Of a stretch of DNA of 64,000 nucleotides, positions 1,339 through 34,378 are shown one piece after another. Each line of letters begins with the position of its first letter. The first letter of the stretch is position 1. The DNA comes from Deltaproteobacteria bacterium (lineage in GTDB: Bacteria; Desulfobacterota; GWC2-55-46; JAJCZF01). The translations under genes were made by a program, and so were the position numbers. The DNA is taken from positions 2,778-66,777 of the forward strand of contig JAJCZF010000061.1 of NCBI GenBank assembly GCA_029262535.1, written 5' to 3'. The notes under the pieces were generated by a model. The model did no database searches. It was not told the origin of the DNA and was given only the letters and a program-made list of their open reading frames with translations.

Positions 1339-1573
1339 GTCGTAAAATCCTTTATATTGTGATTATTCTCGTAACTATACGAATATACAGATGATATAGA
1401 AATAGCCCCGCCATGTCAACCCGAAAGCCGCCTATTTTAACCCTATTTGAGCCCTATTTTAGACGACAAACTCCAAATTTGACTTTATGAAGTCACGTAG
1501 TTCATGTTATTCTATTTTATTAAATAAAAACGGCATCGCCGTTTCCACTTTCAAGCGCCTAACAAATAGAGAT

Positions 1574-4201
1574 ATGGGACATACAGAGACAAATACAAAT
1601 AGAGATCTAGCCATACTGCTCTTATTCTTTCTTACGGGCCTAACGGGGCTCGCATACGAGCTGGTATGGATTCGCCTGCTGATACTGGTCTTCGGCTCGA
1701 CCCAGTTTGCATTTACCACGGTGCTTACGACCTTTATGGCTGGCCTTGCGCTCGGTTCGCTGATATTCGGGCGTCTGGTGGACAGGCACGACAACCCGCT
1801 AAAGCTCTACGGAATACTCGAACTCGCACTAGGCGCTTATTGCCTCGCCTCTCCCCTGGTCTTTGAAGCTGTCAGGTATATCTACTTAAATGTCATCGGC
1901 CCCTCGGAGACCGGAGCCGGATTTAACGGGGTGCAGTTCGGACTTGCCTTTATCGCCCTAATCGTGCCGACTACACTCATGGGCGGCACGCTACCGATAA
2001 TCGTAAAGTACCTGACAAAACGCCAGAAGACGGTCGGTTTCAATACGGCGCTGGCCTATTCGGTAAATACCATCGGAGCGGTCGTGGGCTGTCTTATAAC
2101 CGGCCTTGCTACACTATATCTCTTCGGCGTAAAGAGCACGCTCTACGGTGCGGGACTTATAGATATCGCCATCGGAATCGTGCTTATAGGTATACTCTCG
2201 GTCGGAGCCGGCGGATATAAAAGCAGCAAGGAAAGGACTGAAGAAGAGCCCTGCGCCATCTCAAAGACCGGCGACGGACGGGCTCTAATCTCACGCTCGG
2301 CGCTCTTTATCATCATCTCCATATTCGCCATATCGGGCTTCTGCTCGCTCGTATACGAGGTTTTATGGACACGCGTCCTTTCGCTCATTATCGGCTCTTC
2401 GGTATATGCCTTTACCATCATGCTTGCGACATTCCTTCTCGGCATCGGGCTTGGCTCTATAATATTCGCGCCGTTTATCGACAGGTGTAAAAAGCCGGTA
2501 TTCTGGTTCGCCGTACTGGAGGCCGTAATCGGCCTATCGAGCCTTGGGGCGATATTCTTCTATAAAGAGCTGCCCTTTATCTTTTACGAGATAAATGCAA
2601 AATACTCGGAAAATTTCGCCCTCTTCCTAACGATTGAATTCTTCTTTTGCGCGGCCCTTATGATAATCCCCACGTTGTCAATGGGCGCGATCTTCCCGCT
2701 CGTAGGCAAGATATATGCGCGCGGCGGGAGCTCGGTCGGCAGGACCATCGGGGACGTATATTTCTTTAATACCGCCGGCGCTATATTCGGGGCATTCCTG
2801 GGGGGCTTTGTGCTCATGCCCATACTCGGCGTACAAAAGGCCGTCATACTGACCGCCGCGATAAATATCGCCGCCGCCGTTATCCTGGTTTTCGTATCCT
2901 CTACCGGGGTAGTGAGAAAGGCCGCCTCCTCCGTCTTATTTATCGCTCTATTTATCGCACTCACCGTCTCGCTCCCGAACTGGGACCGCATGATCATGAC
3001 ACTCGGCCTCTACTCGAATGTCGTCGGCACAGAGAATATAAAGAAGGTCGCCGAGGGCAACACGGGCGACCACCTCGCCTATTACAAAGAGGGCGTAAAC
3101 GCCATCATCACGGTGAGAAAGAGCGGGCCGGGCGGCATGGACATAACCTATCAGGCCAATGGCAAACAAGAGGCCCGAGCCAGAGGTCCAAGGCCCGCCG
3201 AGGCATGGTCGCTGCTTGGGCATATTCCGGTCCTTATGATGAAAGAACCGCCGCAAAATGCCCTGCTCGTCGGTTTGGGCAGCGGCATTACACTCGGCGC
3301 CCTGACGCGTTATCCTTTTAAATCGATAGATGCCGTAGAGCTAGAGCCTGCGGTTGTAGTTGCGGCCTCTTACTTTTACGAGTCTAATAACGACGCGCTC
3401 GAAGATAAACGCGTAAAACTCCACCTTGCCGACGGGCGTAACTTTCTCTTTACGACAAAGAAGAAGTACGACGTCATCGTCTCGGCCGTCTCAGACCCGT
3501 GGATAAGCGGCGTCTCTAACCTATTTACCTATGAATATTTTACCAGGATGAGCGAGCAGTTAAATGAAGGCGGCACAACGGCCCTCTGGTTCCAGAACTA
3601 TCGCATAAGGCCTGCAGAGTTGAAGATCGGGCTTAAGACCTTTGCCACGGTCTTTCCTTATGTCAGTATCTACTTTCACTACACCAATACGACCGACCTC
3701 ATCGTCATAGGCTCGAACGAGCCGCATGCCTTTGACATGGGAACGCTCGACAAATATTTTCGTATAGACGAGGTGCGAGACGACCTCAGAAGGATCGATA
3801 TAACGGGGCCGCTCGACCTCTTAGACCTCTTCCTTATCGGGGATAAAGACCTTCGCGCTTACATGGGAGATGCGATCATAAATACCGACGAGAGGCCATT
3901 TCTTGAGTTCGCCCTTCCGAAGCTGCTCTACATGGACCCGGCCAGGGCCATCAATAATGTTCAGGAGATTATAGGGCTAACCACGGAAGTGCTTGCCCCG
4001 GTGACCTTCCCCGAGAGGTGGACGGCGCGAGACAGGGCGCGTTTTTACTTTGAGCTTGGTAAGAAATATGCGAATTCGAGCTTTCGCCTAAGACAGGCGG
4101 TAAAGCTCTTTGAGAAGGCCCTTATAGAGGACCCCGCCCACAAGGCCGCGCGTGAACACCTAAAGATGCTCAAGAGAGAACTCGGCCTCAAGGACGCTTA
4201 A
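1574..4201 (+). CDS. polytopic membrane domain fused to a spermidine-synthase-fold domain, with a TPR-like C-terminal tail (family usually annotated as fused MFS/spermidine synthase)
   Basis: ORF 1487-4201. I moved the start to ATG 1574 (MGHTETN) because the first 29 codons are an AT-rich leader containing a hairpin. Many hydrophobic segments are followed by LLVGLGSGITLGAL, VELEPAVV, LADGRNFL and YDVIVSAVSDPW (spermidine-synthase Rossmann and acidic motifs). The tail reads ELGKKYANSSFRLRQAVKLFEKALIEDPAHKAAREHL (TPR-like). Confidence 0.75.
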   Translation: MGHTETNTNRDLAILLLFFLTGLTGLAYELVWIRLLILVFGSTQFAFTTVLTTFMAGLALGSLIFGRLVDRHDNPLKLYGILELALGAYCLASPLVFEAVRYIYLNVIGPSETGAGFNGVQFGLAFIALIVPTTLMGGTLPIIVKYLTKRQKTVGFNTALAYSVNTIGAVVGCLITGLATLYLFGVKSTLYGAGLIDIAIGIVLIGILSVGAGGYKSSKERTEEEPCAISKTGDGRALISRSALFIIISIFAISGFCSLVYEVLWTRVLSLIIGSSVYAFTIMLATFLLGIGLGSIIFAPFIDRCKKPVFWFAVLEAVIGLSSLGAIFFYKELPFIFYEINAKYSENFALFLTIEFFFCAALMIIPTLSMGAIFPLVGKIYARGGSSVGRTIGDVYFFNTAGAIFGAFLGGFVLMPILGVQKAVILTAAINIAAAVILVFVSSTGVVRKAASSVLFIALFIALTVSLPNWDRMIMTLGLYSNVVGTENIKKVAEGNTGDHLAYYKEGVNAIITVRKSGPGGMDITYQANGKQEARARGPRPAEAWSLLGHIPVLMMKEPPQNALLVGLGSGITLGALTRYPFKSIDAVELEPAVVVAASYFYESNNDALEDKRVKLHLADGRNFLFTTKKKYDVIVSAVSDPWISGVSNLFTYEYFTRMSEQLNEGGTTALWFQNYRIRPAELKIGLKTFATVFPYVSIYFHYTNTTDLIVIGSNEPHAFDMGTLDKYFRIDEVRDDLRRIDITGPLDLLDLFLIGDKDLRAYMGDAIINTDERPFLEFALPKLLYMDPARAINNVQEIIGLTTEVLAPVTFPERWTARDRARFYFELGKKYANSSFRLRQAVKLFEKALIEDPAHKAAREHLKMLKRELGLKDA

Positions 4202-6071
4202 GGCCGCTACCCGACAAACGCCTCTTGACATGTTCGAGATTCTTGGCGGCAAGTTCATTGCCGGGGTGCAGCCTCAGGGCCTTCAGATATTCTTCACGGG
4301 CGAGCAGGTACTTGCCCGTCAGGACGTAGGCGTTTGCGATATTAACGTGTACATTCGAGGTATGAACCCTATCCATGACGCTCTCTTTCGCATACTCGCT
4401 CTCAAGTGCGAGCTTGAAGTGTCTTATGGCCTCTCTATTCTTTCCGGTATTTAAGAGGGCCGTGCCGATATTATAACGCGCGTCCTCATATGCGGGGTCG
4501 ATCTCAAGCGCGGCCCCAAAGAGCCTTATAGCGTCGAGATAATTGCCGCCCCTCATCGATATTACACCGAGATTGGTAAGGGCCTTTACCGAATCGGGCT
4601 TTAACCTAAGGGCCTCTCTCAAGGATGCGACCGCCTCGCTCGACCGCCCCGCCATCATATAAGAGTTGGCAAGATCGATATGTCTGCCCGCCACATTCGG
4701 GCTCTCGGCCACTTCATTTTCATAAAATAGCACCCGGTCCCCCCACTGGAGATTTCTCTGGTAGGTAAGAAGTCCCAGCAGAAGCAAGACAGCAACAAGC
4801 AAAGCCCACATCACCCTGCCCCTCATAAGACCTTTAAAACGCGAAGATATATAATGTATCGCAGCCGATATAAAGATAAAAAAACCGACCGACGGCAGAT
4901 AAGACCTGTGTTCGAATATCGGATGTTGTATAGGTATGACCGACGACTCGACGCTCATCGTAATAAAGAACCAGACGATACCAAGAGAGGCGAGTATTCC
5001 GTAATAGGAACGCCTTGCGGCCGAACGGATAAAGAGCCAGATCGCGACGCCGAATATAAAGAGCAGGACGAGACCGGGAAGAAAGACCCTAGCATCCGCG
5101 AGCGAACGCGCCGGCGGGTAGTCGTAGAGCAGGTGTAGCCCTTCAGGAATAAAAAAGAGCTTAATATATACCAGTATTACGCCAAACTGCGTAATGAAAT
5201 AATTATAACGCGGCACCTTATCGAGATCCCGCAGCTGCGCCTCATTCATTACCGACTGCACGCTACTCTCTCCACCGGCCATAAGGCTCGGTCCGTAGAG
5301 GAAGAGAGGAATGATAAAGAGTGTCAAGAGGAAGGGTATAAGCGCAAGCCATCTGGAGGCCGGTTTAGCCGAGCCGGGCGATTTAGCCGTTTTAGATGGA
5401 ACCATAAAAACAAATTCAAAGAGCATCACTATAAACGGCAGCGTAAAGGCTATCTCCTTGGTTCTCATTGCGACCACCGCGCTTATTAGAGCGGTTATAT
5501 AGTAAAACCGCGCCTGCCGCGCATGGGCCGCCCTCTCACCACCAAACGAAATCAGGCGTGACTTAAGGTATAGAACCAGCGAAAGCAGGTAAAAGAGAGT
5601 AGCGAGCGAGGCGAAGCGCTGCGTTATATAGGCTACGGCCTGAGTCTGGAGCGGGTGCAGAAGAAATAAGAGCGAAGCCGCCAGCGCAAGACTAGCGGTA
5701 CTTGATAAGGCCTGACCATCGGACTCGGCCCGCGCGGAAGTCAAGAGCGGCGTACCTGCCAGCAAGCTTACCATCAAATAGACAAGTATGGCGTTGATCA
5801 CATGTATAAAAACATTGCTTATATGATACCCAAATGTATCGAGGCCGGAAATAGCATAGTTCAGCGCAAAGCTCAGGTAGGTGACGTAACGGGCCCCCGC
5901 GAGATCGGCAAAGCTTGAAAGATCCCGGATCTTCATATTATTTACAATATTATCGGCGTCGTCGAGGATAAAGGGGCCGTAAAGGGCCGCCGAGTAGACC
6001 AGGAGCCCAAGGGCTATAAAGAGGGGCGCGATATACTTAATGGGAATATTTGCGTCCTGATTCTGTTTCAT
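4188..6071 (-). CDS. TMTC-like polytopic membrane protein (putative GT-C glycosyltransferase) with about 5 C-terminal TPRs, paralogue P1
   Basis: ORF 4188-6083. ATG 6071 is preferred over TTG 6083 because AAGGA lies just upstream. Motifs: FILDDADNIV, GYHISNVFIHVINA, HPLQTQAVAY, TKEIAFTLPF, FEHRSYLPSVGF, junction RNLQWGDRVLF, then TPRs such as EALRLKPDSVKALTNLG. Confidence 0.8.
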   Translation of the reverse strand: MKQNQDANIPIKYIAPLFIALGLLVYSAALYGPFILDDADNIVNNMKIRDLSSFADLAGARYVTYLSFALNYAISGLDTFGYHISNVFIHVINAILVYLMVSLLAGTPLLTSARAESDGQALSSTASLALAASLLFLLHPLQTQAVAYITQRFASLATLFYLLSLVLYLKSRLISFGGERAAHARQARFYYITALISAVVAMRTKEIAFTLPFIVMLFEFVFMVPSKTAKSPGSAKPASRWLALIPFLLTLFIIPLFLYGPSLMAGGESSVQSVMNEAQLRDLDKVPRYNYFITQFGVILVYIKLFFIPEGLHLLYDYPPARSLADARVFLPGLVLLFIFGVAIWLFIRSAARRSYYGILASLGIVWFFITMSVESSVIPIQHPIFEHRSYLPSVGFFIFISAAIHYISSRFKGLMRGRVMWALLVAVLLLLGLLTYQRNLQWGDRVLFYENEVAESPNVAGRHIDLANSYMMAGRSSEAVASLREALRLKPDSVKALTNLGVISMRGGNYLDAIRLFGAALEIDPAYEDARYNIGTALLNTGKNREAIRHFKLALESEYAKESVMDRVHTSNVHVNIANAYVLTGKYLLAREEYLKALRLHPGNELAAKNLEHVKRRLSGSGLKRP

Positions 6072-6185
6072 CGGTCCTTTCAACGGTCCTTTTAATGGAT
6101 AGCTGGATACGATTTTGGGACTAATACTCTGAGCCCTCTATACATCTGTCAAAGATAACACACGGTTAAGGCAAAAACCATAAAA

Positions 6186-6214
6186 TTGACTTAAGGGCTT
6201 TTGTCCTATAACAT
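6186..6214 (+). promoter_or_regulatory. sigma70-like promoter candidate for P2
   Basis: TTGACT (6186-6191), 17-nt spacer, TAACAT (6209-6214). The ATG at 6222 follows after only 7 nt, and no Shine-Dalgarno is seen. Confidence 0.3.
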
Positions 6215-6221
6215 AAGCAGA

Positions 6222-8045
6222 ATGAGCATCAACACAAACAGGACAGGCGGCTTTACGCCGCCGTTCATAATCGCGGCCTTTGCAACGGCTATATACCTGA
6301 TCTCTCTTGCAAACGGCTTTGTCTACGACGACCACTTCCTTATAGAGTCCAATAGCTGGATAGAGGGGCTGCGTATCTATGACATATTCACGCGCTCCGA
6401 GTGGTCCTTCGCCTCTGGCGAGAGTCCTATCAACTACTACAGGCCCTTTTTCTATATCTTCCACGCCCTCTCTTATAATATCTTCGGCCCTGAAGCGTGG
6501 GGTTTTCATCTCTCAGCCCTTCTCTTAAACGCCTTTAACGCAGTGCTCGTCTACTATCTCGCGCGCGTTATAGTACCTGTGACAAAAGGAATAAGCTCTG
6601 ATGAAAATATTACGTGGGCGGCCTTTCTCGGAGCTTTGATATTCGCCGCGCATCCGGTTCATACCGAGTGCGTGGCCTGGGCCTCCGCCGTGGCTGACCC
6701 GCTCGTCACATGCTTTGTATTGCTCTCGCTACTTGTCTACATAAGAAAAGAGACGAAGGCCTGCGCCAGCCTGCTATCGCCGACCTTCTTCCTCTTCGCG
6801 CTCTTTTCCAAGGAGACGGCGATAGCGCTGCCCTTCTTCATAGTCCTATACGACCTTTTGATTGAAAGGAGATTACGTTTAAAGGGTTATCTTCCCTTTG
6901 TCGTCGTCGCCCTGGTCTACTTCGCACTCAGGCTGAACGCCCTTGGCGGCATGGCCCCGGAAGAGCTAAGTTATACGACAATGACAGGTTATGAAAAGCT
7001 TATAAATATTCTGCCTCTTCTGGCCCGTTATATCTTTACTCTATTCGTCCCCCTAAAGCTCAGCATCTTTCAGGACTTTCATCCCATAACTTCTCTCTTC
7101 GGCTTTAAGGGAATATTATCGATACTCTTCTCCATCGGTCTCATACTCGTAATGCTCGCGCTCTTAATAAGGAACCGGGTCGCGCTCTTTCTCCTCTTCA
7201 TGACCCTCTTGCCGCTCGGCCCGGCCCTCTATATCCCGGCGCTCGGCAGGGAGGTATTCGCAGAGAGATATCTCTATATGCCAAGCGCGGGTTTTGCCAT
7301 ACTTATCTCCCTTGTAATATTATATCTCTTCAACCGCTCTCAAGGACTAAAGAGGCCGGTTATTATAATCGCCTTCGCAGTCTCCGCAATCTTCGCGGTG
7401 GCGACTATTCTAAGGCTGCCTGCGTGGAAAAACGACTACACTATATGGCTCGACGCCTCCATAAAAACGCCCAATAGGGGTTACCCGCATATGATGCTCG
7501 GCCCGGAGCTTACAAAACGCGGCGAGTTCGACCTATCCGAAAAGTCGCTTAAAAGAGGAATAGAACTTGGCCTGTTGGAGCCGGACCTTCGGATGGCGCT
7601 CTATAATCTTGGTAATCTTTATATGAAAAAGGAAGAGCCGAACAGCGCTCTTAAGGCCTATGAAGAGGCCCGCGCCCTTGGCCACCCCTCGACAAAACTG
7701 CTCTACGCGCTCGGCGCGGCCTATGAAGAAAAGAGTTTGCTTGACGAAGCCCTTATAGTATATGAAAATGGTTTATTGAAGTCGCCCGGTGACCCCGATA
7801 TGCATGCCGCAGTTGGGCGCGTCCACAGAAAGAACGGACGGCTCAAGGAGGCGCGTCTCCACTACGAGACCGCCGTCAGCTTACACGGCGAGAGCGCGGA
7901 GTACAGAAACAACCTCGGCGTAATATACGCCATGCTCGGTCAAGTCAAAAAGGCCGAGGCCGAATTCCGGGCCGCGCTAAAGGCCGACCCCAAACAGGAA
8001 GACGCGCGCAGAAATCTCGAAAGACTAAAAAAAGAGAGCTTTTAA
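6222..8045 (+). CDS. TMTC-like membrane protein with about 5 TPRs, paralogue P2
   Basis: ORF 6201-8045 starts at TTG; the first ATG is at 6222 (MSINTNR). Motifs: FVYDDHFLIE, NYYRP, WGFHLSALLLNAFNA, HPVHTECVAW, SKETAIALPF, FAERYLYMPSAGF, junction LPAWKNDYTIWLD, then TPRs. Confidence 0.8.
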   Translation: MSINTNRTGGFTPPFIIAAFATAIYLISLANGFVYDDHFLIESNSWIEGLRIYDIFTRSEWSFASGESPINYYRPFFYIFHALSYNIFGPEAWGFHLSALLLNAFNAVLVYYLARVIVPVTKGISSDENITWAAFLGALIFAAHPVHTECVAWASAVADPLVTCFVLLSLLVYIRKETKACASLLSPTFFLFALFSKETAIALPFFIVLYDLLIERRLRLKGYLPFVVVALVYFALRLNALGGMAPEELSYTTMTGYEKLINILPLLARYIFTLFVPLKLSIFQDFHPITSLFGFKGILSILFSIGLILVMLALLIRNRVALFLLFMTLLPLGPALYIPALGREVFAERYLYMPSAGFAILISLVILYLFNRSQGLKRPVIIIAFAVSAIFAVATILRLPAWKNDYTIWLDASIKTPNRGYPHMMLGPELTKRGEFDLSEKSLKRGIELGLLEPDLRMALYNLGNLYMKKEEPNSALKAYEEARALGHPSTKLLYALGAAYEEKSLLDEALIVYENGLLKSPGDPDMHAAVGRVHRKNGRLKEARLHYETAVSLHGESAEYRNNLGVIYAMLGQVKKAEAEFRAALKADPKQEDARRNLERLKKESF

Positions 8046-8048
8046 ATA

Positions 8049-8834
8049 TTGGCAAATAAGTCGAATAACAAGAAGAAGCCGAAAAAGAGCCCGGTAAAAA
8101 AGGCTGCTAACTCCGCCCCCTACCTCTCGATAATAATGCCCTGCTATAACGAAGAGAAACTTATAGGGGATACGCTCGAAAAGGTGACCTCCTATCTTTC
8201 GGGCAGGTATAGCTACGAAGCCATTGTCGTTGACGACGGCAGTTCGGACGGCACGGTGGAGATCGCCACGGCTTTTTCTAAAAAGATACCCGAAGTGCGT
8301 GTTGTCGAAAACGGCAGGAACAGGGGCAAGGGTTTTACCGTCAAAAACGGCTTCCTTAACGCCAGGGGTGATGTCGCCATATTCACCGACGCCGACCTCT
8401 CGACACCGATAGAAGAGATAGAGAAGGTCATCGCCGGTATCTCCGAAGGCTACGACGTTGTGATCGGATCGCGCACGCACGGCTCATCCGACATCGCCGT
8501 GCACCAGCCCTGGTGGCGCGAGATAATGGGCAAGACATTTAACCTGATGGTCCAGACCCTGACCATCAAGGGCATTAAAGATACCCAGTGCGGTTTTAAA
8601 GGTTTTACAAAAAAGGCCTATCCTGAAGTATTCGAGCGGCAGACGATAGAAGGCTTCGGCTTTGATGTAGAGATATTATTTATCGCCTCCAAGTTCGACT
8701 TTAAGATAAAAGAGGTCGGGGTTACATGGATAAACCGGATAGAATCCCGCGTAAATCCATTTATCCACCCCATACTGATGATGATAGACCTCTTCAAGAT
8801 CAGGCTCGGCAGCATGGCGGGCAGATACAAGTAA
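8049..8834 (+). CDS. GT2 polyprenyl-phosphate hexosyltransferase (Dpm1/Alg5-like)
   Basis: TTG start, 3 nt after the P2 stop. Motifs: LSIIMPCYNEE, VVDDGSSDGT, NRGKGFTVKNG, AIFTDADLSTP (DxD), QCGFKGF. These are the typical GT-A dolichyl/undecaprenyl-phosphate sugar synthase blocks. Confidence 0.8.
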   Translation: MANKSNNKKKPKKSPVKKAANSAPYLSIIMPCYNEEKLIGDTLEKVTSYLSGRYSYEAIVVDDGSSDGTVEIATAFSKKIPEVRVVENGRNRGKGFTVKNGFLNARGDVAIFTDADLSTPIEEIEKVIAGISEGYDVVIGSRTHGSSDIAVHQPWWREIMGKTFNLMVQTLTIKGIKDTQCGFKGFTKKAYPEVFERQTIEGFGFDVEILFIASKFDFKIKEVGVTWINRIESRVNPFIHPILMMIDLFKIRLGSMAGRYK

Positions 8835-8847
8835 GGCCGCCTACTCG

Positions 8848-10401
8848 CTACCTGCCCTCTAATATCCTTATAGCCTGATCGAGATTCGTCTTCGCCTCCG
8901 GATAGTCTCCGGTTGTGTCGAGCCGCACGGCAAGATCAAAGTTTCTGGCGGCCTCTCTGATATCGCCCTTCTTGGCAAATACTATTCCGAGATTATTATA
9001 TACAGCACTCGACCTCGGGTCGATCTCCTTTGCTGCAAGAAGCTCGCCCATGGCCTCGTCAAGCCTCTCAAGCTTTGCAAGCTCTATGGCGTAACTTACG
9101 CGCGCCTGCCTGCTCGTCGGGTTCTTCGTTGCCGCGTCCTTCCAGATGGTATATTCGCTATCCCAGTCCGGTATACGGTTAAGCGTACCCGCGCCGTAAA
9201 GAACCGCCACTATTAGCGCCACGACCCAGGCGCTCTTTATTCGACCAGGCTTTTGCCATGCTGCAATCGATGCAAAAAAAGATGCCGCAAATATCGCGTA
9301 ACCCACGGAGGCGCCATAGAGATACCTGCTCTCATAAACGGGAGAGGCGCTCTTCCAGGCGAGGTAAAATGGTGGCGCTATCATGATAAGGAACCAGAGT
9401 ATCGCAAAGAGCATCAAACGCGACCTTCTGTAGAGTCGGACCATGAGGGCGATAAATGCGATAAAGAATATCAGGCAATAGATCGCCCTCACATCCGAGA
9501 TAGAGCGCACCGGTTCAAATAGGTTAAAATAAAAGAAGGTTATATCTATAGGCACGAGAACTTTTCTGACATAGAGGAAAAAGAGCGTTGGCAGATTCAG
9601 AAAGAATTCGTAGTAGGAGAGCATCCTGTTTGTGCCCGTCTCGCCAAGCGCCAAAAAGTCTCCGTGAAGCGAATAGGTCCTCATCGCTATAAAGACAAAA
9701 CCGGCTATAACGGTCGGGAGGTAACGGCCTATTATCTTTTTTATTACAAATACGGAATCACGCCTTAAGGTAAGATCGTAAGCGACGAGCGCGAAAGGCA
9801 GCATCATGCCCGTCTCCTTTGAGAGGGCCGACAGGAGAAAGGCGATTGCCGTAAGGATATACCGGTCCTTGATATAAAAGAGCATGGCAAGCAGGGCAAA
9901 TAAGGTGAACGAGACCTCCGGCACCGCGGCTATCCACGAGACCGCCTCGCTATTAATCGTATGAAAGCCGAAAAAGAGAGCCGCGAAGAAGGCGGCGAGG
10001 CTCACGCCCTGCGCTGACCACCTCTCGTCTTGATCATAACCTTCGTTCTTTAAGAGAGAAGAGCTTAAGAGAAAGACCAGAACGGTATTTATCGCGTGGA
10101 GGATTATCTTCATCAGGTGATAACCCCACGACTCAAGCCCGGATAGCTGATAAGAGAAGGTGTAGAGTATATACTTTACCGGCCTGTAATAATTAGAATC
10201 GCCCTCGCCCGGCAGGAAGTCCCAAACTGAAGAGAAGAGGATATTTGAGATATTGGAAAAGTCCTTTATCCATTCGTTGCGTGCGATCTGGTAGAGATCG
10301 TCCGAGATGAACTGGCCGTTAATGCCCGGCAAATATAAAGCCGCGGTCAGACAAAAAGCCAAAAGCATCAAGAAGTTATCGTTTTTAATAAGAGAGTGCA
10401 A
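8848..10401 (-). CDS. TMTC-like membrane protein with about 3 TPRs, paralogue P3
   Basis: TTG start at 10401. Motifs: INGQFISDDLYQIA, NYYRP, WGYHLMKIILHAIN, HTINSEAVSWIAAVPEVSF, SKETGMMLPF, YESRYLYGASVGY, junction IPDWDSEYTIWKD. Confidence 0.8.
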   Translation of the reverse strand: MHSLIKNDNFLMLLAFCLTAALYLPGINGQFISDDLYQIARNEWIKDFSNISNILFSSVWDFLPGEGDSNYYRPVKYILYTFSYQLSGLESWGYHLMKIILHAINTVLVFLLSSSLLKNEGYDQDERWSAQGVSLAAFFAALFFGFHTINSEAVSWIAAVPEVSFTLFALLAMLFYIKDRYILTAIAFLLSALSKETGMMLPFALVAYDLTLRRDSVFVIKKIIGRYLPTVIAGFVFIAMRTYSLHGDFLALGETGTNRMLSYYEFFLNLPTLFFLYVRKVLVPIDITFFYFNLFEPVRSISDVRAIYCLIFFIAFIALMVRLYRRSRLMLFAILWFLIMIAPPFYLAWKSASPVYESRYLYGASVGYAIFAASFFASIAAWQKPGRIKSAWVVALIVAVLYGAGTLNRIPDWDSEYTIWKDAATKNPTSRQARVSYAIELAKLERLDEAMGELLAAKEIDPRSSAVYNNLGIVFAKKGDIREAARNFDLAVRLDTTGDYPEAKTNLDQAIRILEGR

Positions 10402-10407
10402 TAGCTA

Positions 10408-12003
10408 TTACCTTCTATCTCCGCCGTTGCCGTCACCCTGGCGTAGTATCTTTACGGCCTGATCGAGATTCTTCCTGGCGTCTTTATTACCCGGGTCAAT
10501 GAGCAAGGCCGCCTCAAACTGAGACGCGGCCTCTGGGATCAACCCCTTTTTGGCATAGGCTATGCCGAGATTATTATGCAGCCCATCTGCCGTATCGTCA
10601 TTCGGAGCGATAAGAAGCCCCTCTTCCATAGTCGTAATGGCCTCGTCAAGCCTGCCAAGGTCGATCAGTTCCCTGCCGTACCAGAGCCGCGCCGTCATAT
10701 TAGACGGCACCTTCTTTACCACGTCGTGCCAGAGAGCGATCGAACTATTCCAGACAATATTCCTCTTAACGGTAGCGACCGAAAAGGTCGCCGTAATAAT
10801 CACCAAAATAAGCGACGCAATAAGCGGCCCCCTAAGCGAAGAGAGCCTCTCTGAAAGAGAATATAAGAGGGTCGAAACGAGCATACCAAAACCTGCCGTC
10901 GATATATAGAGATAACGCTCGGCAAATATCGGTACGCCCTTAATATAACTAATAGCAAGCACCGGCGCAAGCGGGGTCATGATCCATACTATTATAAATA
11001 GATAAGGCGACCGGGCCCTGTAGAGCCTGTAGAGGAAGTAGATAAAAAAAGCGGTAGAGAGAATATATATAATAGCGCGAAGCTCGAAGGGCGAAAGCAA
11101 TAACTCAAACCTCATATGCGAAAAGTAGGCAAGCTCTATAGGCAAGATAAGTTTCTCAAAATATGTTGCAATAAGCGGCATCATATTCAGCGCAAGCTGA
11201 AAAGCAGAGAGCTCCGCGTCCACCTCAACGCCCTCGACAGGCGTCAGCCCTCCGCCCATAGCGACCATGCGCATAATAAGATAAAATACTACTACCGCGC
11301 CGTATGGTATGAAGCGTATTAGCAGCGCAGTAAAGCGCTCTCTTATAAGCAACAGTGAATAAGCGAAGATTATAGCGGGAACGATAATCGCCGTCTCCTT
11401 GCAAAAGATTGCCGGGATAAAGAGTAGAACCGATACTACCCTTGCGCGCCTGCTACCGCTTATATAAAAAAGGAACGAAAGAAGCGAAAAGAAGGTAAAA
11501 GAGATCTCCGGCACCGCAGCGACCCAATCCACGACCTCGGTATTTATAGTGTGGGTGGCAAATATCAGGGCCGCGAAGAATGGCGGCAGGTAGCTCCATC
11601 CGCTCTTCTCTTCGCCTTCTTTAAAACTATCAAAGATACGAATAGTCAGAAGAAAGACGAGCGCAGAATTAATCGCATGCAAAAGGATATTCACGAGGTG
11701 GTAACCCCACGTCTCAAGGCCGGAGAACTTGTAGCTGACCATATAAAAGAGATGCATCATCGGGCGGTAGTAGACCTGTTCGCCGCCCTCTTCCATAAAA
11801 CCCCAGACAGGTTTTACAAAGACACTGCCTATATTGGAAAAGCTGCGTATCCACTCATTGCGCAAGACCTGGTAGATATCGTCCTTTATAAAATCGCCAT
11901 TAATAGAGTTGGCATAGACCCCGGCCCCGCATACGAAAACCGCCAGCGCGAGCGCGTATAAGATCCTCTTATCTTTTCTATCATAGTGGCGCGGACCGGT
12001 CAT
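10408..12003 (-). CDS. TMTC-like membrane protein with about 3 TPRs, paralogue P4
   Basis: The ATG at 12003 overlaps the P5 stop (ATGA at 12000-12003). Motifs: INGDFIKDDIYQVL, VYYRP, WGYHLVNILLHAIN, HTINTEVVDWVAAVPEISF, CKETAIIVPA, FAERYLYISTAGF, junction NIVWNSSIALWHD. Confidence 0.8.
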   Translation of the reverse strand: MTGPRHYDRKDKRILYALALAVFVCGAGVYANSINGDFIKDDIYQVLRNEWIRSFSNIGSVFVKPVWGFMEEGGEQVYYRPMMHLFYMVSYKFSGLETWGYHLVNILLHAINSALVFLLTIRIFDSFKEGEEKSGWSYLPPFFAALIFATHTINTEVVDWVAAVPEISFTFFSLLSFLFYISGSRRARVVSVLLFIPAIFCKETAIIVPAIIFAYSLLLIRERFTALLIRFIPYGAVVVFYLIMRMVAMGGGLTPVEGVEVDAELSAFQLALNMMPLIATYFEKLILPIELAYFSHMRFELLLSPFELRAIIYILSTAFFIYFLYRLYRARSPYLFIIVWIMTPLAPVLAISYIKGVPIFAERYLYISTAGFGMLVSTLLYSLSERLSSLRGPLIASLILVIITATFSVATVKRNIVWNSSIALWHDVVKKVPSNMTARLWYGRELIDLGRLDEAITTMEEGLLIAPNDDTADGLHNNLGIAYAKKGLIPEAASQFEAALLIDPGNKDARKNLDQAVKILRQGDGNGGDRR

Positions 12004-13595
12004 CTCGCGCCCTCAAGCGCCGCCCGCGCCTGTCTGAGATTATTAGCTGCGTCGGTAAAGGTCGGGTCCAGTCGCAGGGCCGTTGCAAACTCTTTAGCCG
12101 CCTCGCGCATCAAACCTTTTCTCGCATAGACCACGCCTATATTATTATAGGCAAGCGCGGATAACGGATCTATGCGCCGGGCCTCTATAAAGTGAGTGAG
12201 CGAAGCGTCGAGATCACCCCTCCTCACGAGTTCGAGTCCCAGGTTATTACGCGCGATACGGCTTTCAGGGCTCTTTGCCACCGTGTCGCCCCAGAGTGTG
12301 TAATTATCCTTCCATGTAAAGTTCCTCATCACCGTGCCGCCGGCATATAAGACGACCAGCACGGCGAGCGCGCCTCCAAAAGCGCGCATCCATCCAAACG
12401 AGCCCTTAACGTCGCTCTGCCCGCTCCTTTGGGAAAAATATATAGAAAGCTTGGCCCCGTAGAGCGCCAGAAGAAAACCAAAACCGCCTGTAGAGAGATA
12501 TAAGTATCGCTCTGTAAAGGTATTACGCCCAAGCGCCGGTATATATAAGGCGGGAAGCAGAGGCACGGCAATCCATAAAAGCGCGAAAAAGACCAAACGG
12601 TCGTAACGCCACAGGCGCACGAGAGCTACGATAAAGAGCAGGCAGATAATAACGGGCAGGATAAAACGCGGCTCAGAGAGGCTCATAACCGGCTCAAAGA
12701 CATAGTCGAAATTAAGCTCCACCGGCAGGAAAAGCTTACCGAGATAGTCCGCAAAGAGGCTCGGCACGCTCTTTAAGAGCTCAAGATCCGTAAGGTGCGC
12801 AACATGTTTAGGCCTGCCTGGAGCCATCGAAGAAAGCACTGAAAAACGTATAAAGAGATATACCGCGCCGACAAGACCAAAGGGTATCAGTCGTTTTATT
12901 GTCCCTAAGACAGACCGCCTCCATACGAATATCTCAAGCGCTATAAGCAAGACCGGCAAGGTCGCCGTCGTCTCTTTGCTTAAGGCCGCTAAAAAGAAGA
13001 AGAAGAGCGCCCCGATATATCGAAGCCCCTTCATGGAGCGCGCGCCGGAGTATAAAAAGAGACTTATCAGGTAAAAGAGCGCAAAGGAAAGCTCTGATAT
13101 AGCCGATACCCAGCCCACGGCTTCGGTATTTACCGGATGCACGGCAAATATCAAAGCGCTGAAAAATGGCACGAATAATAAAAGAGGCGCAGGTAAAGAG
13201 AGAGGTAACTCGTCGCTCGAAATAGCGGCACGCTCTTCTTCCTTGCGCCTGCCAACCAGTAGCGAGGCCGTAAAGAGATAGACAAAGACCGTAGACAATG
13301 CATGGACGAATATATTCATGGCGTGGTATCCCCACGCCGCCTTGCCGGAGATATTATAACCTACCATGAAAAAAAGGTGATAGAGCGGGCGATACTGGTT
13401 GGAGGCCCCCTCCTCGTCTATACCCCATACCGGGGAGGAAACTATCTCTGGAATATTACCGATATCGGTGATCCAGCGATTTTCAAGAACAAAAAACTTA
13501 TCGTCGCGCACAAGGTCGTTACCGAGCGTATTCGTATATACCGCTATGGCAGCCACAAAGACAAATATAATGGCTATAAGGCGTTTACGATCCAT
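12000..13595 (-). CDS. TMTC-like membrane protein with about 3 TPRs, paralogue P5
   Basis: ATG at 13595. Motifs: LVRDDKFFVL, NQYRP, WGYHAMNIFVHAL, HPVNTEAVGWVSAISELSF, SKETTATLPV, FTERYLYLSTGGF, junction NFTWKDNYTLWGD. Confidence 0.8.
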   Translation of the reverse strand: MDRKRLIAIIFVFVAAIAVYTNTLGNDLVRDDKFFVLENRWITDIGNIPEIVSSPVWGIDEEGASNQYRPLYHLFFMVGYNISGKAAWGYHAMNIFVHALSTVFVYLFTASLLVGRRKEEERAAISSDELPLSLPAPLLLFVPFFSALIFAVHPVNTEAVGWVSAISELSFALFYLISLFLYSGARSMKGLRYIGALFFFFLAALSKETTATLPVLLIALEIFVWRRSVLGTIKRLIPFGLVGAVYLFIRFSVLSSMAPGRPKHVAHLTDLELLKSVPSLFADYLGKLFLPVELNFDYVFEPVMSLSEPRFILPVIICLLFIVALVRLWRYDRLVFFALLWIAVPLLPALYIPALGRNTFTERYLYLSTGGFGFLLALYGAKLSIYFSQRSGQSDVKGSFGWMRAFGGALAVLVVLYAGGTVMRNFTWKDNYTLWGDTVAKSPESRIARNNLGLELVRRGDLDASLTHFIEARRIDPLSALAYNNIGVVYARKGLMREAAKEFATALRLDPTFTDAANNLRQARAALEGAR

Positions 13596-13598
13596 AAG

Positions 13599-15134
13599 CT
13601 AATCTTTTCCGAGTATGGAGAGGGCTTGTTGAAGATTCTTTCTCGCATTTATGTCATTTGGGTTATCGGCAAGCACCGTTTGGAACTCCCTTACCGCCCC
13701 CTCTATATCGCCAGTCTTTGCTAGCGCGATACCGAGATTGTTTCGCGCCGGGTTATGACCGGGGTCTATCTCCAGCGACCTTCTGAAAGCGACGATGCCC
13801 TCGTAGATGCGTCCCCTTCGCGTAAGCTCTATGGCGAGATTATTAAAGGCGTACTTGTTATCTGGGGCCTTGCTCGTGCTATCTTGCCATAAGGTAAGCT
13901 CGTTCTTCCACGCCCCTGTCCGGTGAATCGTACCGTAGCTATAGAGCAGAATCAATCCTATGAAAAATGCCGTAAGAAATTTCTTCGCCCCTGCGCTCGA
14001 CTCTGCATAATATAGATAACCGAGCGCAAGCAACAAGCCAAAACCCGCAGTGGAGATATATAGATAACGCTCGGCAAGGGCCGGGTGACCCTTGAGCATC
14101 GACATATGAAATACCGGTATGAGCGGAATAAATATCCAAAGAAGCGCGAAGAGCGCGACACTATTCCTCTTTCTAAGGACTACGGCAAAGTATATAACTG
14201 AGAATATCACAACGAGCGAGCCCAGCAAACGAGGATCGGTAAGGCCGGTTACGACATCGAGATACTCATAAAATATAAGATTTACAGGCCTGTAGAGCTT
14301 TCCTATATATGCATGTACAAGCGGAAAGAAGTTTAGCACGATATCGCCCTCGGCAAGGTCGGGTTCGTTACTCATCGGCGTAATACCGCCGAGCGCCTGA
14401 AATCTCATTACAAGATAGACGATACCGACAAAGACAAAAGGCAGGTACCTGACAATCCACGCCTTAATGGGCCTTACCGGCTCGCGCCTTATCAAGAGAT
14501 CGTAACAGACCAGGAGCGGCGGCACAAAGGCCGCAGTCTCTTTTGAAAGCGCGCCGATAAAAAAGAATATCACCGCGCCCCAGTACCGGAGCGAGCCGAC
14601 TCGCTCCGAAGAGATATATAGATAGATACTAATAAAGGAGAATAGGGCAAAAGAGAGTTCCGATATGGCGGCGACCCATACGACCGACTCCGTATTAACA
14701 GGGTGAGTCGCAAATACCAGCGCGGTGAACAATGCTCCGAGACGCGCTTTGGATGCCCACTCGCGTTCCTCTCCGTGCCTGCCGCCGATAAGCTTTAGGG
14801 CGATAAGGAATACGAATATCGACGAGAGCATATGGAAGATATTATTTACGAGATGAAATCCCCACGCCGCGTAACCGAATATATGGTAGGTGACAAGATA
14901 ATAGATAAGATATAGAGGCCGGTAGTGGTTCGAGAGATTTTCAAGCCCCTGAAAGGACCAGACCGATTTCGTAAGTATGAGCGGGATATACTTCACATCG
15001 GTTATCCACGGATTGGCGAGAATCAGATGACGATCGTCCACCACAAAGTCGCAGCCGAGTGCGCGCAGGTATACGCAAAACGATACAACGGCGACTATGC
15101 CCATATATAGATATGTCTGTTTTACGTTATTCAT
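13599..15134 (-). CDS. TMTC-like membrane protein with about 3 TPRs, paralogue P6
   Basis: ATG at 15134. Motifs: FVVDDRHLIL, NHYRP, WGFHLVNNIFHML, HPVNTESVVWVAAISELSF, SKETAAFVPP, LAERYLYISTAGF, junction GAWKNELTLWQD. Confidence 0.8.
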   Translation of the reverse strand: MNNVKQTYLYMGIVAVVSFCVYLRALGCDFVVDDRHLILANPWITDVKYIPLILTKSVWSFQGLENLSNHYRPLYLIYYLVTYHIFGYAAWGFHLVNNIFHMLSSIFVFLIALKLIGGRHGEEREWASKARLGALFTALVFATHPVNTESVVWVAAISELSFALFSFISIYLYISSERVGSLRYWGAVIFFFIGALSKETAAFVPPLLVCYDLLIRREPVRPIKAWIVRYLPFVFVGIVYLVMRFQALGGITPMSNEPDLAEGDIVLNFFPLVHAYIGKLYRPVNLIFYEYLDVVTGLTDPRLLGSLVVIFSVIYFAVVLRKRNSVALFALLWIFIPLIPVFHMSMLKGHPALAERYLYISTAGFGLLLALGYLYYAESSAGAKKFLTAFFIGLILLYSYGTIHRTGAWKNELTLWQDSTSKAPDNKYAFNNLAIELTRRGRIYEGIVAFRRSLEIDPGHNPARNNLGIALAKTGDIEGAVREFQTVLADNPNDINARKNLQQALSILGKD

Positions 15135-26308: not shown

Positions 26309-27424
26309 CTAGATATCCTTCTTTGCCCCTTTGGCAAGACATGCTTCTCTTTCAATCTTTATATTCTTTTCCAGATCGACCGCAACCTTGCCGTCGAGCA
26401 AACTACCTTCATCACCAGTTTTTTCACCAGTTTTCTCAAATAAACCGTGTATGCAGAGCGGCTCCTTGCACGATTCTATATAACAATATACCCCTGCAAG
26501 CCCCGCGTCGCGTAGAGAGCTTACGATATTACCACGATTAAGAATAATCTCCGGCGGCGTTGGGCCGAATATCGCGATACTCGGCACTCCCAGGGCCAGG
26601 GCGAGATGGAGCGGCCCCGCGTCCACGCCTATAAAGAGGTCGGTCATCTCCATCAGTTTCAGGAACGCGCGGCTCCTCGCATTGGACTTGCCAAAGACGA
26701 ATGTCTCAACCCCGCGCGGCAGTCCGAGCGGCGACGAATCGTCCGTAGCCACGGCAATAGCCGCATCTGGAAAACGCGAAGTCGCAAGTTCCACTACCCT
26801 GCCAAGGACCGCCCTGTCGAGGCTCTTGGCGGGGTTGGACGAGTCTGGGGCGATAACGACGGTGCGCACTTCCTTTAACTCAGGCTCCACTACGACATCA
26901 TCCGGCTCCGGAAGTAACAGGTACTCTCTCACACGTGCGTAGAGATTCTTATTTATCTCGTGGCTCGGGAATTTTCTGTAAAGGGCGCTCTTCGTCGCAA
27001 AGCTTAAAAAATATTCCGAATCGTCTCCAAGGCTGAATGGGTTGAAGCCGATATCATAGGCGCTCTTTTTAAGCCGGTTTGTTAACTTCAATAGCTTTAC
27101 AGGATTTTTTCTCTTATTAACCGATTCAATATGAATAGAGCCAGTACTACCAGTACTAATAGAATCGACGTCGGCGCGGTCGCCTCTTAAGATCCTCTCG
27201 GCATACGGGCGGAGCTGATTCGAGGTGATTATGAGATAGTCCTTATCCGGCCGCGCGGTTATGAAGTCGCGTATAACGGCAAAGCTAAGTATGCCGTCGC
27301 CATAACGGGAAAATACCGCAAAGAGAACCTTACGGGCCGCATCGATATCCTCCAGCCCTACGTCGCCTCCCGGATAGGCCGCAGCCCTGGCCACCCTCTT
27401 CTTTATCATGCGCTTTAAAACCAC
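26309..27424 (-). CDS. glycosyltransferase family 9 (heptosyltransferase family)
   Basis: DLFIGVDAGPLHLALALGVPSIAIFGPT is the GT9 C-terminal signature. The N-terminal block is VLFAVFSRYGDGILSFAVIRDF. Confidence 0.8.
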   Translation of the reverse strand: MVLKRMIKKRVARAAAYPGGDVGLEDIDAARKVLFAVFSRYGDGILSFAVIRDFITARPDKDYLIITSNQLRPYAERILRGDRADVDSISTGSTGSIHIESVNKRKNPVKLLKLTNRLKKSAYDIGFNPFSLGDDSEYFLSFATKSALYRKFPSHEINKNLYARVREYLLLPEPDDVVVEPELKEVRTVVIAPDSSNPAKSLDRAVLGRVVELATSRFPDAAIAVATDDSSPLGLPRGVETFVFGKSNARSRAFLKLMEMTDLFIGVDAGPLHLALALGVPSIAIFGPTPPEIILNRGNIVSSLRDAGLAGVYCYIESCKEPLCIHGLFEKTGEKTGDEGSLLDGKVAVDLEKNIKIEREACLAKGAKKDI

Positions 27425-28474
27425 CTAGTTGGCCTCCGCCTCCAATTGCATCTCTATAGCGCGTTGCTCCAGAATATACTCTACCGCCTCATAGACCTCG
27501 TCCACAGTAATAAGCCTCATGCAGGTTTTGTCGCCCTTGTCGCAATCCTTTGAATGGCCGCAGGGGCTGCAATCTACATCATGGGCAAAGACAAAGTGTT
27601 TCTTGCCTATCGGATGCCAACGCCTGAAGTCGGTAGGACCGAATAGGCCTATGGTCGTAGCGCCCATTGAACAGGCTATATGCATCGGGGCCGAATCGTT
27701 GCCGACGAAGAAGATCGACTCGCGCTCCACTACCGCAAGGTCGCGTATCGTCGTCTTACCCGCGATATTGGTTGCCCGCTCCGTCATTGCCGACTCTATC
27801 TTACCGGCATTCTCAACGTCCATGGAGCCGCCGCAGATAACGACCTCGACACCGGCGCGCACCGTCCTGTCGGCTAGTTCCGCAAAGCGCTCCGTGGGCC
27901 AGCTCTTATACCAGCGTCTCGCGCCGGGGTGAAATACGGCATAAGGTTTTTTTACGTCCTTGATCAGGGCCATGGCCTTCTCTACCTCTTCATCGAGAAG
28001 GAAGATCTCCGTCTCCGGCTCAAGCCTCCTCAGACCAAGCTGGCGGCCCACCTCAAGGTTTCGTTCCTCCTCGCCGAGATCGTTCGGGATATCGAGCAGG
28101 ATGTTGTAGAGCCGTTTATTCCTAAAATTCTTGTGACCCTTTATGCCTACCCTTGAATAGGGCTTTAGGAAACGCGCTATCCACGCGGAGCGGTCCGAGT
28201 TCGTGAGATCTATCGTCGTCTCGAACTCCTCTTTTTTAAGCTTTCTTATAAAAGACATCTGCTTTGTAAGCCCCCACGAGCGGTCGAAGGTAATAGCCTC
28301 GTCTATATAGGGGTTATTTTCCAGTGTCTCTTCGGTGCCCTTGTTGACCAGGACCGAAATCTTCGCGCCGGGATAACCCTTGCGAAGCGCCCTTAAGAAG
28401 GGCGTTATCAGAAGCACATCGCCTATGTAACGCATCTTTATAACCAGTATTCTATCTTTACCCAGGAATCTCAT
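27425..28474 (-). CDS. glycosyltransferase family 9 (heptosyltransferase family)
   Basis: ILVIKMRYIGDVLLITPFLRALRKGYP and FVGNDSAPMHIACSMGATTIGLFGPTD. Confidence 0.85.
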   Translation of the reverse strand: MRFLGKDRILVIKMRYIGDVLLITPFLRALRKGYPGAKISVLVNKGTEETLENNPYIDEAITFDRSWGLTKQMSFIRKLKKEEFETTIDLTNSDRSAWIARFLKPYSRVGIKGHKNFRNKRLYNILLDIPNDLGEEERNLEVGRQLGLRRLEPETEIFLLDEEVEKAMALIKDVKKPYAVFHPGARRWYKSWPTERFAELADRTVRAGVEVVICGGSMDVENAGKIESAMTERATNIAGKTTIRDLAVVERESIFFVGNDSAPMHIACSMGATTIGLFGPTDFRRWHPIGKKHFVFAHDVDCSPCGHSKDCDKGDKTCMRLITVDEVYEAVEYILEQRAIEMQLEAEAN

Positions 28475-29568: not shown

Positions 29569-29578
29569 AAACTTTCAC

Positions 29579-29663: not shown

Positions 29664-29684
29664 TCGTGGTGGGACGAGTCCGCT

Positions 29685-31566: not shown

Positions 31567-31567
31567 A

Positions 31568-32263: not shown

Positions 32264-32269
32264 AAAACC

Positions 32270-33382: not shown

Positions 33383-33439
33383 ATTAAGAGTCCCAACAAG
33401 CTATCCCTATAGTTCGCGGAGCCAATTGAAGAAAGACCG

Positions 33440-34372: not shown

Positions 34373-34378
34373 GCCAAG

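Follow-up and report, generated by a model that had tools for sequence, protein, structure and literature searches.

Why does a bacterium encode six related membrane proteins side by side around the gene of a candidate lipid-linked sugar synthase, and what might these proteins glycosylate? The question arises from a stretch of 64,000 nucleotides, here called the window, from a Deltaproteobacteria bacterium (assembly GCA_029262535.1, contig JAJCZF010000061.1, positions 2,778 to 66,777). The initial annotation, made from the sequence alone, described six paralogues (here P1 to P6), a glycosyltransferase family 2 (GT2) gene among them and an unlinked seventh copy (P7), and likened the paralogues to eukaryotic TMTC1–4, enzymes of the GT-C fold. 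All of these genes were found where it had placed them (Table 1). On balance, we consider it probable that the locus encodes a periplasmic glycosylation system in which GT-C enzymes of the TMTC branch depend on a lipid-linked sugar, most likely with Ser/Thr residues of proteins as acceptors.

P1–P7 align across a common membrane domain of about 400–460 residues with 28 invariant columns. Pairwise identity is 30–42% within P2–P6 and 22–29% between these five and P1/P7, far beyond chance, and P1 and P7, a separate subgroup considered below, share 38–40%. The architecture proposed for all copies, a membrane domain followed by tetratricopeptide repeats (TPRs), stood for the membrane domain in all seven and for the TPRs in P1–P6; P7 has none. 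Likewise, the 3–5 repeats read in each copy of the array fit P1 and P2, with about 4–5 by Pfam, while P3–P6 have 2–3.

Sequence, fold and topology of the TMTC-like proteins

Pfam and NCBIfam scans of P1–P7, both full-length and membrane-only, returned only TPR models, one sub-threshold match to PMT_2 (P2, E = 4e-4, under the curated cutoff) and, in one copy, a weak match to the NCBIfam 'cell surface glycopolymer formation' domain; P7 matched no Pfam model, and Pfam MIR and Wzy_C had no match in the window copies. In a sequence-profile search of the PDB, the full-length query was swamped by TPRs and the membrane-only query had no match. Because these standard family scans were silent on TMTC, the published 'grand alignment' of TMTC1–4 N-terminal domains (PMC7801869 supplement) was used as the reference, with its ArnT, STT3B, PglB and Pmt1 sequences as controls. 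For the bacterial side, a family hidden Markov model (HMM) was built from 91 homologues, and E-values were calculated at Z = 1.8e9.

By BLASTP, the window membrane domains matched animal TMTCs with 22–34% identity over up to about 450 columns and E-values down to 3e-13 (database of 1e11 residues), as exemplified by P6 against fly TMTC1 and TMTC2 (26% over 385–402 columns) and P7 against fly TMTC1 (34% over 193 residues), and matched none of ArnT, STT3B, PglB and Pmt1. The bacterial family HMM recovered all eight animal TMTCs with 140–191 bits (E of 1e-35 to 3e-51). Conversely, the animal TMTC HMM scored P1–P7 at 67–118 bits (P1 89, P2 105, P3 78, P4 103.5, P5 104, P6 118 and P7 67), and no HMMER match to the four controls was obtained. 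The two profiles were aligned by hhalign along 386 columns, which reach from transmembrane helix (TM) 1 to the RN junction that separates membrane domain and TPRs, with a probability of 100% and E = 5e-52. Against single sequences, the family profile aligned to TMTCs with 99.6–99.9% probability, compared to 2.3% for ArnT and at most 0.2% for STT3B, PglB and Pmt1. Given the TMTC-specific matches in BLASTP, HMM and hhalign comparisons and the blank controls, the sequences place the window proteins specifically in the TMTC branch of GT-C enzymes, as bacterial members. The likeness to TMTC1–4 was therefore correct over the full-length membrane domain, and so was the statement that the conserved blocks are not those of ArnT or PglB.

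Seven motifs have been described for TMTCs (M1–M7: DD, SHKSYRP, RxD, KE(T/Q)xxT, DW, PxxP and ERxxY; PMC7801869 Table 4). P2–P6 retain the DD of M1, the YRP of M2, the HPxHTE block, the acid of M3, the KE(T) of M4 and M7 in the form ERYLY. The longer blocks pointed out in the initial annotation, YYRP...WG(Y/F)H, HPx(N/H)TE, (S/C)KET, ERYLY and the R-N/W junction, were all present in these five copies, and every DD-loop string that it quoted had been read correctly. P2, for example, carries FVYDD, YYRP, HPVHTE, KET, PLGP and AERYLY, and P3 carries HTINSE, KET and ESRYLY; M6 (PxxP) is intact in P2 and P4–P6 and partial in P3. The DD pair is invariant in 7/7 window copies. In an alignment of 92 family members, no variation was seen at Y71, R72, P73, H94, H144, E149, K198, E199, R356, Y357 and Y359, while conservation of D33 and D34 is at least 90%. 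All these residues map to M1, M2, M4, M6 and M7. Such conservation of the catalytic residues points to active enzymes.

AlphaFold2 modelling of P6, as the full-length protein and as the membrane domain only, gave a mean pLDDT of 95.3 and a pTM of 0.94. The model has 11 TM helices and C-terminal TPRs, and its helices correspond to those of the 11-TM topology of TMTCs. When the full-length model was compared to the PDB by Foldseek, ArnT and STT3 were the best matches and the tail matched TPR proteins. With the membrane-only model, the top 25 matches were all GT-C enzymes (probabilities of 0.98–1.00, collapsing thereafter), in agreement with the fold assigned in the initial annotation; these included STT3A/B, ArnT, PglB, Pmt4 (TM-score 0.56, the maximum), DPY19, Pmt1/2, AftA, Emb and AftD. 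No TMTC was among the PDB matches by Foldseek or by sequence. Human TMTCs have similar best structural matches, ArnT first and then oligosaccharyltransferases of the STT3/PglB type (Eisenhaber et al. 2021, PMC7801869).

The side of the membrane was predicted from the model and from charge. In all seven copies, Lys and Arg in the short loops, helix ends included, number 12–19 on the predicted cytoplasmic side versus 3–4 on the predicted periplasmic side; with strict helix ends the bias is weak (5 versus 3). An odd helix count (11), combined with this charge bias, places the TPRs in the periplasm, and the DD loop, HPxxTE, KET, the TM7–TM8 loop and ERYLY are predicted to lie on the same side. The orientation first proposed for the DD loop and the TPRs thus agrees with the model, with homology and with the charge count, and the DD pair is conserved in homologues.

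The putative donor synthase, its genomic linkage and candidate flippases

Gene spacing divides the array into three transcription units: P6-P5-P4-P3, with gaps or overlaps of at most 6 nt, P2-GT2, and P1 alone. The starts given for P1 (6083) and P2 (6201) are upstream TTG codons; internal ATGs occur at 6071 and 6222, and either choice is plausible. A promoter and terminator scan was uninformative except for a hairpin where P1 converges with the upstream fusion gene described below.

The GT2 protein matches Pfam Glycos_transf_2 (E = 2e-33), contains a DAD motif and is of the soluble or peripheral form. Its best NCBIfam matches are all polyprenyl-phosphate glycosyltransferases (ArnC, PgfS, Dol-P-hexose transferase, AglJ and PpgS), all under the curated cutoffs, and its best PDB matches are the Pyrococcus dolichyl phosphate mannose (Dol-P-Man) synthase 5mlz (7e-23), followed by ArnC and GtrB. 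Close homologues are labelled dolichyl-phosphate beta-glucosyltransferase (ALG5 type) by both JGI and NCBI. These matches uphold the Dpm1/Alg5-type GT2 first noted inside the array, and from its sequence GT2 likely makes the lipid-linked sugar donor.

Genomic linkage was assessed in seven loci, comprising the neighbourhoods of GT2 homologues at 55–69% identity (L021–L026) and L009. GT2 directly adjoins a GT-C gene in 7/7, which, together with the P2-GT2 spacing in the window, bears out the proposed co-location of donor synthase and transferases. In L009, a TMTC-like gene is followed by GT2 on the same strand, as P2 is by GT2 in the window. The L009 orthologue of GT2 is itself a fusion to a domain proposed to be the flippase module of Gtr systems, and downstream of it lie a stand-alone TPR protein, two open reading frames (ORFs) without a Pfam match and then a P1-type TMTC-like gene. 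The same GT2 family also pairs with other GT-C types, TMEM260-like in L026 and PMT_2+PA14 in L025.

The linkage bears on whether the enzymes could instead act like the oligosaccharyltransferases PglB and STT3 and transfer a glycan already assembled on undecaprenyl pyrophosphate, with GT2 serving another pathway. The top structural matches include STT3 and PglB, and for TfpW, a pilin glycosyltransferase compared below, a dual activity as glycosyltransferase and oligosaccharyltransferase has been proposed (bioRxiv 10.1101/2020.04.19.049825). However, the sequence profiles match neither STT3B nor PglB, the conserved K/E and E-R-x-x-Y correspond to monophosphate-donor contacts modelled for TMTC (PMC7801869), and GT2 is of the monophosphate-sugar synthase type, adjoins GT-C genes in every sampled locus and is once fused to a GtrA domain. 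We regard this alternative as very improbable.

Two genes of the window are candidate flippases, the fusion of an MFS-like membrane domain to a spermidine-synthase-like domain (MFS/SpeE) that converges with P1, and the flippase-like protein of the LPS-core-type cluster (Table 1). The former, which the initial annotation had not included, matches Pfam Spermine_synth and MFS_1 and the NCBIfam 'fused MFS/spermidine synthase' model at 112.6 bits (cutoff 40). Its orthologues (1196 and 1073 bits) stand immediately beside GT2/TMTC-like genes in L022 and L023, so that the fusion is a conserved neighbour of the module. That it flips the donor is a guess only; no literature on the fusion was found.

Table 1 Features of the window and of GT2-linked loci used for comparison. 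Positions in the window count from its first nucleotide.
Feature	Position	Strand	Description
P1	4188-6083	-	631 aa; TMTC-like GT-C membrane domain and ~5 TPRs; transcribed alone, divergent from P2
P2	6201-8045	+	614 aa; TMTC-like GT-C membrane domain and ~5 TPRs; first of P2-GT2 operon
GT2	8049-8834	+	261 aa; polyprenyl-phosphate hexose synthase, DPM1/ALG5/ArnC/GtrB class; 3-nt gap after P2
P3	8848-10401	-	517 aa; TMTC-like GT-C and 2-3 TPRs; last in P6-P5-P4-P3 operon
P4	10408-12003	-	531 aa; TMTC-like GT-C and 2-3 TPRs; start overlaps P5 stop by 4 nt
P5	12000-13595	-	531 aa; TMTC-like GT-C and 2-3 TPRs
P6	13599-15134	-	511 aa; TMTC-like GT-C and 3 TPR hairpins; first in four-gene operon; copy modelled
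P7	50543-51784	-	413 aa; unlinked P1-type TMTC-like membrane domain, no TPR
MFS/SpeE fusion	1487-4201	+	904 aa; MFS-like membrane domain fused to spermidine-synthase-like domain; convergent with P1
LPS-core-type cluster	26309-43196	-	six GT9 heptosyltransferase-like, two WaaP/Kdo-kinase-like and two GT4 genes, methyltransferases
Two sulfotransferases	34379-36308	-	within LPS-core-type cluster; unusual for a core-type cluster
Flippase-like protein	38553-39527	-	LPG_synthase_TM/TIGR00374
ArnC-like GT2	39524-40483	-	257 bits to ArnC model, under cutoff; overlaps flippase-like gene
L021-L024			GT2 neighbours are TMTC-like genes, 166-457 bits to family HMM
L024	1-10524		TMTC-like module also adjoins PilX/PilY1
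L025 (Brocadia)	8001-12708		GT2 neighbours are two PMT_2+PA14 proteins beside pseudopilin and type II secretion system genes
L026	4782-8714		GT2 neighbour is a bacterial TMEM260-like protein, 1049 aa
L009 (Nitrospirota metagenome-assembled genome)	11878-13023		GT2 orthologue fused to N-terminal GtrA/DPMS TM domain (GtrA_DPMS_TM)

Proposed pathway and the nature of the acceptor

We infer a pathway of three steps. At the cytoplasmic face, GT2 would move a hexose, more likely glucose, from a nucleotide sugar to undecaprenyl phosphate, as its family suggests. The lipid-linked sugar would then be flipped to the periplasmic face. There, the 11-TM, N-in enzyme would bind the donor at a periplasmic site comprising the DD loop, YRP, HPxxTE, KET, PxxP and ERYLY, and one sugar would be transferred to an acceptor held by the C-terminal periplasmic TPR domain. 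By analogy with TMTC1–4, TMEM260 and TfpW, the acceptors would most likely be Ser/Thr residues of periplasmic or envelope proteins; on such analogies, a protein acceptor has in our estimate somewhat better than an even chance.

Why several enzymes are present can be considered from their history. Locus L001 contains a tandem array of four family members and an adjoining fifth GT-C gene of the PMT_2 type. Reciprocal best matches were found between P6 and L001_g1 (53%), P5 and L001_g2 (47%) and P4 and L001_g4 (46%); the nearest L001 gene to P3 is g3 (36%), with ambiguous orthology. Because P6, P5 and P4 have reciprocal-best orthologues, these comparisons date the paralogues to before the split of the two genomes, and each has been retained, which suggests distinct roles. 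Given this age and the conservation of individual paralogues, it is probable that they differ in the acceptor or site that they serve. The initial annotation had rested the same idea on the different TPR tails of the paralogues, an argument that fails among P3–P6, where identity is as high in the tails as in the membrane domains (38–44% versus 35–42%). Faster divergence of the TPR tails than of the catalytic domains is thereby ruled out, and different TPR tails alone are no evidence of acceptor specialization. A bolder version of the proposal, in which the window copies are the prokaryotic equivalents of the enzymes that O-mannosylate animal cadherins and form a multi-enzyme Gram-negative system of periplasmic protein O-glycosylation, the TPRs of each paralogue choose a class of periplasmic or outer-membrane proteins and MFS/SpeE is a new essential component (flippase or modifier), is put forward only tentatively.

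In L001 (16381-17964) and L021 (17664-19244), the paralogue array ends with another GT-C gene (PMT_2, about 527 aa, unmatched by the TMTC-like HMM), which is adjoined by a radical SAM gene, a GT2 and a DegT aminotransferase.

Characterized systems provide the analogies for a protein acceptor. Animal TMTC1–4 (GT105) are Dol-P-Man-dependent protein O-mannosyltransferases of cadherins and protocadherins. The window copies resemble them in homology over the whole 11-TM domain, in N-in, C-out topology with a non-cytoplasmic TPR domain (predicted in the window copies), in the motif elements DD, YRP, WG(F/Y)H..N..LH, HPxHTE, KE(T), PxxP, ERxxY and the RN junction, and in forming a paralogue set. They differ in being bacterial and in having 2–5 TPRs, full-length TMTCs having longer TPR regions; moreover, the donor lipid here must be a bacterial polyprenol, and the adjacent synthase is labelled ALG5-type (glucose) instead of DPM1. 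TMEM260, an O-mannosyltransferase composed of GT-C, Rossmann-like and TPR domains, shares the 11-TM GT-C core and the TPR domain, which recruits the acceptor peptide and is sufficient to bind it (bioRxiv 10.64898/2026.03.17.711096), and a bacterial TMEM260-like gene lies beside the same GT2 family in L026. In contrast to TMEM260, the window proteins lack a Pfam TMEM260_N (DUF2723) match and the Rossmann-like domain.

Bacterial analogues exist as well, and the initial statement that no characterized bacterial system of this kind is known was too strong in view of TfpW, the Gtr systems discussed below and the streptococcal GtrB/PgtC2 and PgfS/PgfM1 systems. TfpW of P. aeruginosa is a pilin O-arabinofuranosyltransferase that uses a polyprenyl-phosphate sugar donor and has ArnT as its closest structural template (bioRxiv 10.1101/2020.04.19.049825). 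Its published description, a cytoplasmic N terminus, 11 TM helices by prediction, a DDx motif in the periplasm and, at the C terminus, a TPR domain on the same side, resembles what is predicted for P1–P6. Unlike these, it is a single gene, directly downstream of pilA, and its donor D-arabinofuranose comes from a DprE-type pathway, not from a GT2. The streptococcal systems combine a polyprenyl-phosphate hexose GT2 with a GT-C enzyme, and they O-glycosylate extracytoplasmic Ser/Thr-rich protein regions (PMC12041528). PgfS is among the best NCBIfam matches of the window GT2, whereas the streptococcal GT-C enzymes belong to the YfhO family, have no TPR and act in Gram-positive hosts.

Several observations count against the proposed system. 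The first concern the donor. Although the initial annotation invoked DUF1736, the Pfam model (PF08409) matched no copy even at E<=10 by hmmscan, and the precomputed Pfam column showed no PF08409 among the listed bacterial homologues. The loop at the homologous position (TM7–TM8) is aligned by hhalign, but it is shorter than in animal TMTCs and diverged, without DNP. P2–P6 further lack the SHK of M2, modelled as mannose-contacting in TMTC (PMC7801869), and the M3 arginine. M5 (DW) is absent or variable, and its exact aspartate is kept only in P5 (FDY). With SHK, the M3 arginine and DW unconserved and no DUF1736 match, the donor sugar and fine mechanism may differ from those of TMTC. Regarding the donor path, no GtrA-like or other small multi-TM gene occurs in the 64-kb window, and the L001 counterpart of the four-gene operon has no ALG5-like GT2 within 10 kb. 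Regarding the acceptor, no pilin gene was present among the window ORFs scanned, and the window contains no obvious Ser/Thr-rich substrate gene. A lipopolysaccharide (LPS)-core-type cluster lies 7.6 kb from the array, and L001 and L021 carry sugar-nucleotide and glycan-synthesis genes; both contexts suit a glycan acceptor equally well. Finally, P7, without TPR and without the KET lysine (AE in place of KE), may be inactive.

A 741-aa solute-binding lipoprotein encoded divergently from P6 was considered as an acceptor and rejected, as it has no Ser/Thr-rich region.

The genomic context points to the main alternative, in which the same enzymes and donor path act on envelope glycans (LPS core or lipid A, O-antigen or exopolysaccharide) in a Gtr/ArnT-like decoration of multiple sites, with the TPRs docking to machinery for glycan assembly or export. 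Characterized three-component systems of GT2 and GT-C enzymes in Gram-negative bacteria mostly modify O-antigens or lipid A (PMC11127046). The Gtr systems (GtrA, the GT2 GtrB and a GT-C enzyme, Gtr*; the GT136 pentofuranose systems are among them) follow the same logic of synthase, flippase and GT-C enzyme; the window GT2 matches GtrB and ArnC, and the L009 orthologue has a GtrA domain. The GT-C enzymes of Gtr systems differ from the window copies in being of other families, without TPR and with O-antigen as acceptor; each system has one, compared to up to six at this locus, and a GtrA-like flippase is lacking here. ArnT, which with ArnC adds aminoarabinose to lipid A (GT83), belongs to the top structural matches, although it has another periplasmic domain and no TPR, and ArnC-type GT2 genes occur in the window. 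The LPS-core-type cluster contains an ArnC-like GT2, a second lipid-sugar synthase in the window, and a flippase-like gene and no GT-C partner of its own, and the TMTC-like array could supply that partner. The paralogues of L001 and L021 stand beside DegT, GT2, radical SAM and nucleotide-sugar genes, and the weak glycopolymer-domain match in one copy fits as well.

Against a glycan acceptor, the nearest characterized sequence relatives, TMTC1–4, act on proteins, and the profiles do not match ArnT. An Opp-type transporter operon separates the array from the LPS cluster. Homologues are annotated in archaeal metagenome-assembled genomes (MAGs), hosts without LPS, which favours a protein acceptor. 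Related modules adjoin PilX/PilY1 (L024) and pseudopilin genes (L025), and in TMEM260 and TfpW the TPR domain goes with a protein acceptor. We therefore rate glycan acceptors as possible but rather unlikely, and protein acceptors remain our preference.

Whether every copy is a transferase is a separate matter, raised by P1 and P7. Both share a 15-residue deletion that removes the YRP of M2, lack PxxP and have a degenerate M7. P1 keeps DD, HP..T, KE and R..Y. The P7 ORF ends 4 residues past the RN junction. In the approximately 900 bp downstream (49629-50542), no significant TPR remnant and no ORF of at least 100 aa was found, so that P7 consists of the membrane domain only. One frame in this region, IRFHPGLIEARRKF, faintly resembles the C terminus of P1; the match was not significant, and a decayed TPR was rejected. 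Without the KET lysine, the YRP block and PxxP, P7 may be inactive or specialized. P7, and perhaps P1, might accordingly be decaying or regulatory proteins, such as non-catalytic partners in hetero-oligomers of the Pmt1–Pmt2 kind; in the window and in both L009 and L024, a P1-type gene occurs alongside a P2-type gene around GT2, as would be expected of an obligate pair. On the other hand, both copies still have DD, the HP...(T/I)(E/Q) block and the M7 Arg and Tyr, the P7 ORF is intact over 413 codons, and the subgroup profile matches the TMTC alignment with E = 9e-35. P1-type relatives also persist across genomes: L009_b is 35–38% identical to P1 and P7 (36% and the best match elsewhere for P1), and L024_dn is closest to P1. 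Such conservation argues for selection, not decay, and we consider loss of transferase activity in these copies doubtful.

Breadth of the family and neighbouring genes

The extent of the family was estimated with a profile of the five P2–P6 membrane domains, counting clusters at 50% identity. At E<=1e-3 there were 100,954 clusters, a total that presumably includes eukaryotic TMTCs, and at E<=1e-30 there were 16,562. Homologues occur in Nitrospirota, Thermodesulfovibrionales, Nitrospinota, Thermodesulfobacteriota, Armatimonadota, Myxococcota, Planctomycetota, Acidobacteriota and Gammaproteobacteria, and are annotated in two archaeal MAGs; the nearest relatives found are in Nitrospirota and Thermodesulfovibrionales MAGs. 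A scan of reference genomes with a single peptide pattern yielded 15 loci, a sample and not a census.

Public databases mostly name the homologues 'tetratricopeptide repeat protein', although some JGI entries read 'protein O-mannosyl-transferase'. Reports on bacterial genomes contain dbCAN labels of GT105 (PMC11166690), and Eisenhaber et al. mention TMTC 'homologues even among prokaryotes' (PMC7801869). No characterized prokaryotic TMTC/GT105 member was found in the literature searched. The enzyme family as such is thus known and automatically labelled in databases; what is new is a bacterial TMTC-type array in a Gtr-like module with a conserved MFS/SpeE partner.

In humans, TMTC enzymes are important for development and in disease. 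According to a preprint, structures of mammalian enzymes that initiate O-mannosylation were lacking until March 2026 (bioRxiv 10.64898/2026.03.17.711096). The bacterial TMTC branch is very large, unstudied and related to this human enzyme family. With the compact, conserved module of GT2, TMTC-like genes and MFS/SpeE, heterologous expression can directly address the donor sugar, the acceptor class and what the TPRs do, and structural studies of the TMTC fold would gain short proteins that are probably tractable. Should the acceptors prove to be proteins, Gram-negative bacteria would have a second general route of O-glycosylation; if they are LPS or polysaccharide, the function of the fold outside animals would be reassigned.

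Further genes were noted elsewhere in the window. Near P7 (47546-49628 and 52558-53154) are a stand-alone 266-aa TPR protein, a Fic-domain-like protein that carries a GFSS-type repeat, and a C39 peptidase domain of the PA2778 family that matches only the first 145 of 255 model positions, the TPR half being absent. A radical SAM protein with DUF3641 (45048-46004, minus strand) is encoded beside a methyltransferase (44319-45047), a pair that we take to be typical of arsenosugar-type loci.

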